Below are positions 14,686 through 62,445 of a stretch of 64,000 nucleotides of DNA, in pieces (positions within the stretch are counted from its first letter, which is position 1; every line of letters begins with the position of its first letter). The DNA is taken from positions 32,054,001 through 32,118,000 of the forward strand of contig OX597822.1 of assembly GCA_951406725.2 (NCBI GenBank), given 5' to 3'. A program made the position numbers and the translations under genes. Under the pieces are notes generated by a model. It was not told the origin of the DNA, searched no databases, and was given only the letters and a program-made list of their open reading frames with translations. Source of the stretch: Octopus vulgaris. Taxonomy: Eukaryota.

Positions 14686-14942
14686 CTGTAAATATAATAT
14701 GTGACAATTATTCGGTAGCCATATGAATCTGAGTTTCAAATGTCGGGGCAGTAAACCACGCCGGCATCACTTCAGTTAACGGAAGAGATATCGGCATGGG
14801 TTACCACCCCAACATCCGAAACACATAGTTTTATCACGGCTACCGAATAATTGTCATATATTACATTTACAGATAAATTTCTCCATTTACATAATATCGA
14901 GGTCTCTTTCATTTTTTTTTTGTAGTTTTACCATTTCTATTA
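14686..14942. repeat. Fold-back insert at (TA)n with two head-to-head degenerate HHR-like motifs
   Basis: Arms CTGTAAATATAATATGTGACAATTATTCGGTAGCC / GGCTACCGAATAATTGTCATATATTACATTTACAG, centred on GTTAAC at 14775-14780. Confidence 0.75.
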
Positions 14943-15009
14943 ATATATATATATATATATATATATATATATATATATATATATATATATACATATAAAA
15001 CGTAGATGC

Positions 15010-15347
15010 TGATTGCCAACATAATATGGCTCTCTATGGAAGAGACGGTGATACTGTTCTTTTAGTCCCAAGAAGCACCGTTTCTAGCTGGCTATACGAC
15101 ACACTATACGTGTCCTTATAATTCCGAACAGGGAATTCAGCATCCCCAACTAGCACAAGACAACATCTGGGCAATAACCCTGAAACTAGTCTACGGTGGC
15201 CGTCTTGTGCTTGGTTGAGATGCTAAATTCCCTGTTCGAAATATAAGGACACAGTGTGTCGTATAGCCAGCTAGAAGCGACGCTTCTTGAGGCTAAAACA
15301 ACAGTAACAACGTCCCTTCAAGGATAGCCATGTTATGTTGGGCAATT
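15010..15347. repeat. Diverged inverted repeat with ~150-bp arms between (TA)n tracts
   Basis: 15010-15161 versus 15202-15347. The spacer contains GGG-caataa-CCC-T-GAAAC-TA-GTC, which resembles the 3' half of an HHR. Confidence 0.8.
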
Positions 15348-15390
15348 GGCTTTTATTTTAAAGAACTGTTATAGTAAATATATATATATA

Positions 15391-15680
15391 TATAAAAGAA
15401 GTTTTGAAAATGCAATTTTAAAAGATGTATATTTACTTGACCGGTTTCACTTTTTTAGAAACAAATTGTCAAAAGTAACGTGTAAAAGCTTGGTTGTGTT
15501 AGGTACTGTGTGACAACCAGTAAGTAACACAGCCAAGCTTTTACACGTTACTTTTGACAATTTGTTTCTAAAAAAAGTGAAACCGGTCAAGTAAATATAC
15601 ATATTTTAAAATTGCTTTTTCAAACCTTCTTTCATATATAATTCCACTCGTGCGGTACCTTACAACTCCACATAGTTATA
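15391..15680. repeat. Near-perfect inverted repeat with ~110-bp arms and a degenerate HHR in each arm
   Basis: 15391-15501 versus 15525-15640. The right arm has TTACTT-TTGACAA-...-GAAA-CCGG-TC-AAGTAA at 15548-15594. Same family as 62300-62445. Confidence 0.85.
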
Positions 15681-16207
15681 TATATGTATCTATCTATCTA
15701 TCTATCTATCTATCTATCTATCTATCTATATATATATATATATATATATATATATATATATATATATATATACATACATACATACATATATATATATATA
15801 AATATATATTAATATATATATAAATATATATATGTATGTATATAAATATGTGTGTGTATATGTGTGTGAGCGTGAGCATATGTGTTTGTGGGCTCATGTG
15901 CGTGTATTAGTAGTTGAGTGCCATTAATATGATTACATGATTACATGTAAAAAGTCGCAATTATTTAATCATAGTTTGAATAACTATAGTTCAGCAAAAT
16001 TTGCTAAACTGAGTGCAAATTAATTAGTAAGGTAATTAACTAATTAATTAATTTGTTCATTAATTGATTATTCCTTTTGTATTTGTACCATCTGCTACCA
16101 TACGAAATTTTGTTTGACATTATGTTTGCTCTCAGTGTTATAAAATGTCTGTTTTGATCTAATCTCCAAACTGCGATTAAATAATGATGAATTATTGCAT
16201 GTAAAAG

Positions 16208-16627
16208 GGGCGAATTGGCAGAAACGTTAGAACGCTGGGCGAAATGCTTAGCAGTATTTGATTCGTCTTTACGTTCTGAGTTCAAATTCCGCCGAGGTCG
16301 ACTTTGTCTTTCATCTTTTTGGTGTCGATTAAAAATGTACCAGTTACGCTCGATATAATCGACTTAATCCTTCTGTCTGTCTTTGTTTGTCCCCTCTGTA
16401 TGTAGCCCCTTGTGGGCAGTAAAGAAATAAGAAATGTTAACACGCCGGGCGAAATACTTAGCGGTATTTCGTCCGTCTTTACGTTCTGAGTTCAAATTCT
16501 GCCGAGGTCGACTGTGCCTTTCACCCTTTCGGGGTCGATTCATTAAGTATAAGTTGCGTACTGGAGTCGATCTAATCGACTGGCCCCCTCTTCCAATATT
16601 TCGGGCTTTGAGCTTCGAGCAGAAAAA
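16208..16627 (+). mobile_element. SINE family B, two tandem copies
   Basis: GGCGAATTGGCAGAAACGTTAG..GAGTTCAAATTCCGCCGAGGTCGACTTTG..TTTCATC..GTCGAT..GTACCAG; tRNA-like B box (GAGTTCAAATTC). Confidence 0.85.
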
Positions 16628-16694
16628 AGTTAACGTATGAAACTAATGGTATCCTTGAAACAATAATATTGGGTGACTTTAATATTAGTTTAAA

Positions 16695-16897
16695 ATTTTG
16701 GGCACAAGGCCACCAATTTCGAGGGTAGGCGTAAGTCGAATTCTTCGAAACGAGTGCTCGATTGGAACTTATGTTAACGAACACGAAATGATGAAATCAA
16801 ATTTGACTTCAGTGCAATTTGATCTGAGAGCATAAAAATTGACAAAAGGTTGCTAAGTATTGGTTCGGCATGATAATGACCCTGCCAGCTCACCACC
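16695..16897 (-). mobile_element. SINE family B, degraded
   Basis: Diverged reverse-complement match to the 16208 copy. Confidence 0.55.
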
Positions 16898-59294: not shown

Positions 59295-59860
59295 TTTTGA
59301 AGAGCTCGGGTTTAGGGAAGGTTTTCAGTGCTTCATTTTGGTCCAACTACTACGAAGAGTGTTTTTTTTTATTATTGTACAGAATCCACCTTTCATCGCA
59401 AGTTACAATACGGTCGAGGAATGGATCAGTTTTGTTACGGAAAAATCCGAGGGGCAAATTTCATATAAGCGCATTTTCTGCCTTTCATTCAAGTCAAATG
59501 GTAACTATTTGTCGGGCATTTTTGATTTTCTGATCGCATGCAAATAGTTGCAGGTAGTTTTCTAACTTGAATTTTTTTTTGCCAGTTATCGAGTAGTTGC
59601 AGGGGATATTTCTCAATGACGGTCAATTAAAGACCGTCGTCTATGACAGATGGGAATCCAATGCGCTCACGGACTTCAAGGTTTAGGTCTCCATTGAGAG
59701 ATCCTTTAAACCAATTTCGGACTGACCACTCACTGGTCATTCGCTCGCCAAATGTTTCGTTGATATTGGGAGCAGTTTCAGCTGCTTTACGTCCTTTTGT
59801 GAAGTTGAATAGTAAACATGCACCAATATTGCTCACTGACACTACCATTTCATATGATTG
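59295..59860 (-). mobile_element. Degenerate mariner transposase, N-terminal half
   Basis: KGRKAAETAPNINETFGE..VRNWFK..GDLNLE; PFLDRIVTCDERWILYNN. Confidence 0.85.
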
Positions 59861-59959
59861 TAACGACAGTGAAACAATATCAATGTTAATTTATTGATGC
59901 ATTTGGGCAAGTCTATGTCAGTATTATCGGACAGTGCAAACAATTTCAACATTATATTA

Positions 59960-60660
59960 AGACGTAAGTGGAAAAGATACCTGTATGACTACTGTATTAT
60001 TAGGAAGGAGATCATTAATAAACTTTTGGAATTCAAAGCGATAATAAATAATATAAACCCTAACATTCAATTGGATATCATGATGAAAAAAATTCAACAA
60101 CCAAATTATAACTGAAATGTATCATAAACCAAGGGACTATAAGCAGTATCTCCTGTTTAGCTCATGCCATCCGAAACACATCAAAAGAAATATTCATTTT
60201 AATTTAGCAAAAAAGATTTACACAATAGAGTCTGATAGAAATACTCGGGACCCTCGTCTTCAAAATTCCAGAACAGCACTAACTGAAAAACTTTATCCAC
60301 CTCCATTATTGACGATGTAATTGTCCTAAACTATTGGCTGGGTCGGAATTCCTATTCAAACAAGAAGAGAGGTTCACAATTGCAAACAACATCTCTTGTG
60401 CTTCCGAGAATATAATTTATGTTATAATTTGCTCGGGTTGTGGACGTACATATGACACTGAGACGGATAACCACACTACATAAGGCAGAGATCCCGTTTC
60501 CGCAATACAGACAGATTCCTTTGTGTGAACACATAGAGGAATGTGCAGGTGATATCCAATCAAACTTCACAGTTTTCCCCATCTACCAGTGCTAAGGAGC
60601 AATTTCTATGGAAGAAAGTTTAAATATAAAAAAATTGTTCATCGAAATTGTAAACACAGT
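59960..60660 (+). mobile_element. Heavily deleted Penelope-like element relic (RT thumb plus GIY-YIG piece)
   Basis: WKRYLYD, INNINPNIQ, YHKPRDYKQYLLFSSCHPKHIKRNI, IYVIICSGCG. Confidence 0.7.
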
Positions 60661-60861
60661 ATAATATATATGAAAAACATATTAAACCAATGTAAACATT
60701 CTTTTATAAATATATATATATATATATATATATATATATATATATATAATATTATATTAAATTAAGTGTAAATATATATATATATATATATATATATATA
60801 TATATAATATTATATTAAATTAGAGTGTAATATATATATATATATATATATATATATATAT

Positions 60862-61000
60862 TTATTATATAGAAGGAGTTTACAGGACTAGAACTGTTTC
60901 AGTTTAGTCTAGAACTCCTTCTATATAATAAGTTAATTTTACTCTGCTATGTATTGAGTACCTTATTTACTGTGGTTAACCCCGAATCAACCGGACCTAC
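60862..61000. repeat. Short fold-back insert in (TA)n
   Basis: TTATTATATAGAAGGAGTT / AACTCCTTCTATATAATAA. The spacer in reverse complement contains GAAACAGTTC. Confidence 0.7.
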
Positions 61001-61604
61001 ATATATATATATATATATATATATATATATATATATATATATATATATATATATATATATATATATATATATATATATATATACATATGCATATAATAGA
61101 AATATGTTACAAAATGAAAATAGAAACTACACGTGGAAATGTAAGGGGAAAGTAAGAAAAATCAACGAAAATGCACATTACAAACAAAAAAAGAAAAGGC
61201 TTTTTATGACTATATATATATATATAGGAATAGATAGATGTATGTATGTATGCATGTATGTACGTATGGCTGACTGACTGGCTGGCTGTATGTATGGATG
61301 GATATACATGATGGAGTAAACACCATAGTTTACAATCAATTTCCTAAACACAATCCCTACTTTCCAATTCAACTTCACAATTCATTAAACTCTAAATCCA
61401 TTCCATCATGGGACAGTATGCTTATAATCTTCCAGCAACTCATCAAATGTGATATTTGTGTAGCTATACAGGAATCTTTTGATATGATTAGTTTCAAAAC
61501 AATTAGGCGTAATTGTCAATAGAAATTTTAATTACTGCTTACGTAATTGATCAGATATTGAAGATATCGCATACATATATTTATTCCTCTATTTGTTCCT
61601 TTAT

Positions 61605-62040
61605 TCCTATATTCTATTATTTGTTTCAGCCATTTCACTGCAACCATGTTGGTGTACAGCTTTTTAGTTGGAGACTTAGAACCCAGGATTTATTCTCTCT
61701 AAGCCTAATACTTATTCTATCGGTCTCTTTTGCTGAATCACTAACTTATTGGGACGATAACACACCAACATCAGTTGTCAAGCCGTGGTAGGGGGACAGA
61801 CGCATACACAAAAATACATACATGCGTACATACATAATATATATATATATATATATATATATATATATATATAGGACGAGCTTCTTTTAGTTTCCGTCTA
61901 CCAAATCCACTCACAAGGATTTGGTCAGCTCGAGGCCATATTAATAGAAACTTGCCGAAGCTGCCACGCAGTGGTACTGAACCCGGTAGCATATGGTTGG
62001 GAAGCAAGCTACTTACCAAACAACCACGCCAGCGCCTATA
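61605..62040 (-). mobile_element. SINE family A, full length
   Basis: Complete diverged copy. Confidence 0.85.
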
Positions 62041-62299
62041 CAGAAATTTATAAATGCATGCTACATTCTGCGTGTAAAAAAACTGCGACTAGCATAACCA
62101 CTGGGCACCTTCTGTTCTGTTGCCGTGAGTTGGTGTTAGTAATGTCAAACACTGTAACCTGCATGCTGTTTGTATGGATACATATATAGTTGTATCCATG
62201 TATGTAAGTGCGTATGTAGGTATACATATATTTATACGTATGTATGCTTGTCTGTCTGCAGGCATATATATATATATATATATATATATATATATATAT

Positions 62300-62445
62300 A
62301 AAAGTTGAGTTGTGGGGTATCGCACGAGTGGGATTATATAAGAAAAAAGGTTTGAAAATGCAATTTAAACGATGTTTATTTAGAGTGAAACCGGTTAAGT
62401 AAATAAACATCGTTTAAATTGCATTTTCAAACCTTTTTTCTATAT
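62300..62445. repeat. Fold-back insert in (TA)n, same family as 15391-15680
   Basis: AAAAAGGTTTGAAAATGCAATTTAAACGATGTTTATTTA-GAGTGAAACCGGTTAAG-TAAATAAACATCGTTTAAATTGCATTTTCAAACCTTTT. Confidence 0.85.

Follow-up and report, generated by a model that had tools for sequence, protein, structure and literature searches.

Short inverted repeats with hammerhead-like motifs in the (TA)n tracts of an Octopus vulgaris locus are most probably truncated insertions of Penelope-like elements

Why should short inverted repeats lodged in (TA)n microsatellites turn back on themselves close to a hammerhead ribozyme motif? The question was raised by a stretch of 64,000 nucleotides (nt) of Octopus vulgaris DNA (assembly GCA_951406725.2, contig OX597822.1, positions 32,054,001 to 32,118,000 of the forward strand), referred to here as the window, which holds five such inserts, named E1 to E5 in window order. 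The original prediction for these inserts proposed that ribozyme cleavage makes the template 5' end at which reverse transcriptase (RT) folds back, and that the resulting hairpins constitute a class of non-autonomous retroposons. Analysis of their arms, tails and breakpoints led to a different answer. The five inserts are most probably heavily 5'-truncated, dead-on-arrival insertions of several families of Penelope-like elements (PLEs), and eight of their ten arms run through the predicted cut, which shows that uncleaved RNA served as the template.

The window consists of AT-rich animal DNA in which TA runs, once merged, number 78; 7% of its length is no more than 20 nt away from one. All five non-coding inverted repeats were found where they had been reported, with arm matches of 76/94 (E1), 135/158 (E2), 115/122 (E3), 30/32 (E4) and 48/48 (E5) in alignments that take in a few flanking TA bases. 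A masked self-BLAST of the window returned E1, E2, E3 and E5 as self-inverted, while the fold-back of E4 was seen by alignment. The same search found E3 and E5 to be 85-89% identical and matched no other pair of inserts with each other, giving four sequence families, in agreement with the at least four predicted. Nine of the ten outer ends adjoin a TA run, the exception being the left end of E2, about 15 nt away; at the left end of E1 the run is short and lies within a CA/TA tract. The location of the inserts in (TA)n was thus upheld. One arm continues into a unique tail in every insert, and not just usually as had been suggested, the tails measuring 70 nt (E1), about 32 nt (E2, 18-32), 44 nt (E3), 69 nt (E4) and 41 nt (E5). 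All five are arranged head-to-head, as by an inverted 5'-truncated copy. E1 has no spacer between its arms (centre 14777/14778), and the spacers of the others are 40 nt (E2), 9 nt (E3), 3 nt (E4) and 17 nt (E5) long, that of E5 lying on the tail-less arm and those of E2 and E3 on the tail arm.

The tail-less arm of E1, with a decayed type I hammerhead, occupies 14686-14777 on the minus strand by alignment. Its tail arm (14778-14872, plus strand) begins at a spacer-less TTAA centre directly 5' of the decayed core, with a predicted cut after 14830, and the tail (14873-14942, plus strand) ends at (TA)n. In E2, self-BLAST and alignment placed the tail-less arm at 15012-15161 on the minus strand, its outer end being uncertain by about 15 nt. 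The E2 spacer (15162-15201, plus strand) is part of the tail arm and holds stem II and the 3' half of a hammerhead without the 5' core, with a predicted cut after 15191; the remaining tail arm (to about 15346) and its tail extend over 15202-15378 on the plus strand and end at (TA)n. The same E2 fold-back, with both arms, was present in a contig of a second organism and is thus not an assembly artefact. E3 comprises a tail-less arm (15393-15508, minus strand) with a complete hammerhead (core 15472-15439), a spacer and tail arm (15509-15634, plus strand) with a complete type I hammerhead and a predicted cut after 15588, and an A/C-rich tail (15635-15678, plus strand). The tail-less arm and loop of E4 (60862-60899, minus strand) hold only a hammerhead-like 3' half, the first G of which comes from the other arm, and are followed on the plus strand by the tail arm (to 60931) and tail at 60900-61000. 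E5 consists of a tail arm starting 4 nt after the predicted cut, with its tail (62301-62382, minus strand), and of a spacer with a hammerhead 3' half (cut after 62396) joined to the tail-less arm to which it belongs (62383-62441, plus strand). Although E3 and E5 are independent insertions, their tail-less arms stop at one and the same point, which is the boundary of the tail.

Of the complete or partial hammerheads reported for the inserts, that of E3 is complete, that of E1 decayed, and those of E2 and E5 partial, with only the 3' half; the hammerhead of E4 is doubtful, its GAAAC borrowing a base of the opposite arm, while the stem that follows resembles stem III of the Hydra clade of PLEs. 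A strict type I hammerhead descriptor gave 2 matches in the window against 0.14 in 100 shuffles, and a relaxed descriptor allowing a U3-A8 pair gave 7 against 0.32 in 200 shuffles (maximum 3). The relaxed descriptor matched both arms of E3 and nothing in E1, E2, E4 or E5; the complete but decayed hammerhead on both arms of E1 was recognised by eye. The E3 hammerhead has a 6-bp stem I, a TTGACAA core (U3-A8), an A/T-rich stem II and a palindromic stem III. The half motif GAAAC-N1-2-GTH is a weak marker because only 5 of its 23 matches in the window (9.7 in shuffles) lie within inserts, and the count is inflated because it also matches the 3' end of an abundant short interspersed element (SINE)-like repeat (14345-14535 and about eight other copies). 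Copies of this repeat in two parts are often split by a TA run. The half motif of E2 was joined to 15254-15256 in other copies at a constant distance of 62-64 nt, on contig sides of just 19-23 letters. No hammerhead was present among the 150 of 287 Rfam matches listed, which held only microsatellite matches to microRNA models, and a motif scan of metagenome contigs returned two loci, both in unrelated bacterial-type coding DNA. A relaxed-descriptor match at 51762-51687 is probably due to chance. A complete type I hammerhead with a 6-bp stem I was also seen on the minus strand at 27635-27590, outside any TA run.

That the inserts derive from the 3' ends of hammerhead-bearing PLEs was supported by their layout, tails, (TA)n flanks and ribozyme position. 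The usual PLE unit is 5'-truncated, often has an adjacent inverted 5'-truncated copy at its 5' end, and carries a 30-40 bp tail at one end (PMC8557442). Like insertion units of endonuclease-bearing (EN+) PLEs (PMC8557442, PMC3846280), the inserts combine an inverted 5'-truncated copy, a one-ended tail, junction palindromes, a microsatellite target and, as far as it is preserved, a terminal-repeat hammerhead; unlike these units, their arms measure only 30-170 nt and hold neither an open reading frame (ORF) nor a tandem copy. PLEs of the Hydra clade target (TA)n, an octopus member included (PMC8557442). Hydra-1_Obim of Octopus bimaculoides and Penelope-13_HM share with the inserts the (TA)n target and a cut near the 3' end, the Hydra-clade hammerhead likewise has a stem II flanked on both sides by one additional base, together with a palindromic stem III, and the inverted 5' copy found in Penelope-13_HM contains a hammerhead of its own. 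The inserts are non-coding, however, so that the likeness is one of ribozyme form and position, and (TA)n is targeted also by octopus Naiads and other clades. From the predicted cut to the start of the tail the inserts measure 42 nt (E1), 46 nt (E3), 22 nt (E4), 44 nt (E5) and 155 nt (E2), and from the cut to their 3' end 112, 90, 91, 85 and 187 nt, respectively; in the tables of PMC8557442, 23 of 24 Hydra-clade families have their cut at a distance of 30-153 nt from the end of the consensus, a count that omits one further family listed with its motif at the 5' end. The nearness of hammerhead and bend probably follows from this position alone, because with a cut only 85-187 nt from the 3' end any short copy that shows the motif must break nearby. 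We infer that the inserts depend on (TA)n-targeting PLE enzymes, as had been proposed.

Other published systems share some of these traits. Remnants of PLEs in which paired hammerheads lie on opposite strands, separated by 100-700 bp, as well as a variant with U3-A8 covariation, have been described (Cervera and de la Pena 2014, PMC4209133); the Schistosoma mansoni hammerheads of that study resemble those of the inserts in their dispersed single motifs, opposite-strand pairs and U3-A8 core, while its available text contains no description of arm structure or of breakpoints. Non-LTR retrozymes (PMC7229834; bioRxiv 10.64898/2026.07.22.740005) are likewise short, non-coding, PLE-derived and non-autonomous with a type I hammerhead, but form head-to-tail tandem repeats with circular RNAs, in contrast to the head-to-head pairs with partial ribozymes seen here. 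No head-to-tail array of hammerhead monomers was found over the inserts, the arms of which are inverted. One repeat annotation of O. vulgaris lists recently active Penelope families, the available main text being without the word hammerhead (PMC13282606). The layout, the preferred target, the position of the ribozyme and the U3-A8 variant have thus all been published already, whereas the literature search, in which subscription papers were not included, returned no study that maps PLE inversion junctions against the ribozyme.

Hammerhead cleavage yields a 3' product that begins behind the NUH triplet and is devoid of the GAAAC..GTH motif. Measured from the predicted cut, the inserts have their inner ends (tail arm/tail-less arm) at -53/-53 (E1), -26/+11 (E2), -80/-71 (E3), -11/-15 (E4) and +4/-14 (E5). 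Eight of the ten arms therefore cross the cut into upstream sequence and none starts at +1. Since a cleaved template cannot supply the sequence that these eight arms hold upstream of the cut, the proposal that the site of RT fold-back is set by cleavage fails, and we consider it highly improbable. It is favoured by the E5 tail arm and the E2 tail-less arm, which start at +4 and about +11, and by three inserts in which both inner ends lie no more than 30 nt from the cut. However, at least three of five inserts fall within this distance with P = 0.24 under a uniform, size-limited null, in which inserts are required to display the motif and to be no longer than 340 bp (the cut of E4 was taken 5 nt away, its class being unchanged). 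The assertion that each inversion lies within about 30 nt of the motif stood only when measured from the nearest edge of a 40-60 nt ribozyme, which takes up most of arms as short as these; measured from the cut it failed for E3 and E1. The break of E3 lies 30-40 nt upstream of its ribozyme, and the centre of E3 is 62-70 nt from the GAAAC cited in the original prediction. The 5' breaks of three hammerhead-bearing PLE pieces of the window, taken as controls, lie at -264 (without an inversion), -1226 and beyond -1319. Moreover, ribozyme-mutant PLE RNA inserts normally in vitro, and in the data from Anolis no RNA reads end at the hammerhead cut (PMC11167929). As regards a new class of hairpin retroposons, nothing was found to indicate that the hairpins are mobile as units, and the differing junctions of E3 and E5 argue that the hairpin is not copied as one.

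Contigs of four sequencing runs (X1, X2, X5 and X14) mapped to 15162-15515 gave 546, 709, 861 and 55 records, respectively, with letter differences listed as far as 15464; the depth of these contigs reflects presence and neither copy number nor, for the one run presumed to be RNA, expression. For the E3 family (cut at 15439, minus strand), summed contig depth in the bin just 3' of the cut was 13.8k (X1), 64.6k (X2), 244.5k (X5) and 1.3k (X14), and over stem II upstream of the cut 28.5k, 93.7k, 312.5k and 1.8k. Depth thus showed no drop upstream of the cut, the upstream value being at least as high as the downstream one in all four runs, which again speaks against cleaved templates. Among these contigs the only strand-change joint was that of the E2 orthologue, in X5, and no breakpoint map was obtained.

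Several observations weigh against reading the inserts as ordinary truncated PLE insertions from uncleaved RNA. Two of the ten arms do begin just past the cut, as mentioned above. In the E2 family, contig depth over the hammerhead half was 20- to 100-fold below the arm peak; this drop sits at +43 to +48. Since 35-40 contigs in each DNA run continue past that point with unlike letters, divergence is the more probable reading, truncation a less likely one. The paired inner ends differ by just 0-37 nt in all five inserts, for which independent truncation gives P values of 0.00003-0.02, so that the arms are coupled beyond what two free primings explain. The tails of E1 and E4 are about twice as long as the textbook PLE tail. 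None of the inserts matched the PLEs of the window by self-BLAST, and four short insert motifs had no relevant match, and one unrelated match, in the supplement of Craig et al. (PMC8557442), and no insert was linked by these comparisons to an autonomous PLE. Finally, the sample comprises five inserts, picked by eye.

The coupling of the inner ends is one argument for a structural role of the ribozyme, in which the uncleaved hammerhead fold would stall RT, or its stems or palindromic stem III would let complementary DNAs (cDNAs) snap back or pair, leaving an excess of junctions inside the ribozyme. The spacer-less TTAA centre of E1 at the 5' strand of stem I, the 3-nt loop of E4 at GAAA, and the longer arms of E2 and E5, which end in or next to stem II, would fit such a role, and palindromes at inverted PLE junctions, for which self-priming has been proposed, are known (Arkhipova et al. 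2013, PMC3846280). It was nevertheless considered unlikely, as E3 breaks outside the ribozyme, no excess over the null was seen with five inserts, and seven isolated motifs and tails were no more stable when folded than their shuffles (z -0.99 to +0.12). In an unlikely extension, which would account for the matching inner ends and assign the PLE hammerhead a role, the hammerhead would act as a coupler and not a cutter: two RNAs would pair via stem III, a dimeric RT would copy them from both nicked (TA)n strands, and the copies would stall and join in or near the ribozyme, with E3 and E5 as a 190-nt U3-A8 mini-retroposon on this route.

How single copies of truncated PLEs could have acquired their form is suggested by an in vitro study, in which the PLE protein cuts and extends both target strands and starts at two RNA sites bracketing the tail (Frangieh et al. 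2024, PMC11167929). The Anolis Poseidon element of that study resembles the inserts in that both strands are cut and extended, targets are AT-rich and the two RT starts bracket an A/C-rich tail; it belongs to another clade and host, and the available text does not demonstrate second-strand synthesis and joining. In the octopus, the element enzyme would nick both strands of a (TA)n target, and each nicked strand would prime reverse transcription on uncleaved RNA, the tail arm being begun at the distal start site and the tail-less arm at an internal one. Both cDNAs would stop at about the same place, either because the template was broken there or because synthesis stalled, and the two short products would be end-joined head-to-head. 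Two start sites bracketing the tail predict one arm with and one without a tail, and a fixed start of the tail-less arm, as in E3 and E5. Within the PLE class, two-ended priming of this kind is slightly favoured, and snap-back of one cDNA is a plausible but less probable route. The E5 spacer, on the tail-less arm, is not expected from simple snap-back of a tail-primed cDNA, and spacers on either arm (E5 compared with E2 and E3) would fit two primings better, although deletions at the centre of a palindrome could blur this distinction.

Compatible with this account of how single copies inserted is the possibility, itself somewhat unlikely, that E3 and E5 represent a non-autonomous hammerhead mini-PLE of about 190 nt with a fixed 5' end and high copy number, E3 being nearly full-length in both arms. 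Loose contig ends behind 15501/15508 agree (0.9-1.0 at 15508) over about 25 further nt and reach a TA run in X1 and X2, and depth is high over the whole arm. However, there are just 7-15 such contigs per run and place, with a median loose length of 12-22 nt, and the TA run might form an inner part of a longer pseudo-long terminal repeat, as in the large PLE of the window. Upstream of the E3 centre, 15509-15516 as extended by the loose ends resembles by eye the outer end of the tail-less arm of E1 (14686-14706), followed by a TA run; by this comparison, the master of E3 and E5 may be chimeric and carry an inverted PLE end on its 5' side.

Two further explanations were also weighed. The inversion could have arisen after insertion, from a single truncated PLE end at which the template was switched during replication, and such events do occur in the window, where 58738-59048 is a tail-to-tail inverted duplication. 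This duplication (145/153 matched) is centred on a (TA)n run, and its arms include an aged (TGTA)n tract and no hammerhead. In contrast, each of the five inserts is head-to-head and carries its tail on a single arm, and the point at which the tail is lost is identical in E3 and E5, a boundary that repair would not respect; template switching is therefore very unlikely to be their source. The inserts might alternatively be miniature inverted-repeat transposable elements (MITEs) with TA target duplications, being inverted repeats flanked by TA, with the outermost 35 bp of E1 matched better than its inner arms. This was hardly credible given unique tails of 32-70 nt outside one arm in all five, terminal inverted repeats (TIRs) that are not flush with TA at both ends, and an internal extent that differs between E3 and E5. 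The inner divergence of E1 is CpG-type decay, 12 of the 17 arm differences being transitions, many at CpG-type sites. Furthermore, a MITE-like element of the window (38014-38255), possibly of the mariner type, looks different, with symmetric TIRs flush with TA.

Read as truncated PLE insertions, the five inserts supply cephalopod instances of an insertion layout already known for PLEs. If an excess of junctions inside the ribozyme held genome-wide, the finding would matter more: in the available text of PMC8557442 and PMC11167929, what PLE hammerheads do and how the inverted ends arise are given as open questions, and a single genome with thousands of short fold-backs would allow both to be tested. 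Hairpins of this kind would also be at risk of annotation as MITEs by automatic pipelines.

Homologues, motifs and direct repeats identified a young PLE, putatively of the Hydra-clade type by its motifs and homologues, at 6386-14284 on the plus strand. Its RT (8104-9666) and a GIY-YIG-type part (9641-10627) lie in two frames, and its direct repeats (6645-7969 and 12960-14284) are 99% identical. The ORFs carry KWK (RWK-type), DKT, CTCRDKSNC (CxCx5C linker) and a C-terminal endonuclease, and the element further has a (TA)n target and a hammerhead (14152-14186), 98 nt from its (TA)n 3' end, the 5' copy of which is mutated in GAAA. The sequence at 11756-12015, some 950 nt upstream of where the repeat begins, recurs in an inverted 5' piece (6386-6645). 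An asparagine-rich stretch lies between RT and endonuclease, with a frameshift near 9650, and the terminal repeats are 1.3 kb long and G/T-rich, with internal repeats. A Pfam search of the PLE ORFs assigned no family, and 2 of 25 homologues of the largest ORF of the window were named Octopus bimaculoides proteins. A Naiad label for this element was dropped in favour of the Hydra clade.

The 3' part of a second PLE (62465-64000, minus strand) holds an endonuclease remnant (63690-63391) and a complete hammerhead (62755-62682), 217 nt from its 3' end at (TA)n. The control insert at 994-1306 on the minus strand is flanked by (TA)n and has a complete hammerhead (1120-1043) and no fold-back, its 5' end being the break at -264 given above. 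Two near-identical 23-nt units stand between TA runs at 60749-60829, immediately following the decayed remnant of a PLE endonuclease (about 60000-60700), and are possibly tail-only insertions. A 62-nt hairpin (87%), in which no hammerhead motif was seen, lies outside a TA run at 46739-46800, and fragments of long interspersed element (LINE) reverse transcriptase (Pfam RVT_1 and zf-RVT) were located on the minus strand at 1400-2920 and 56543-56950.

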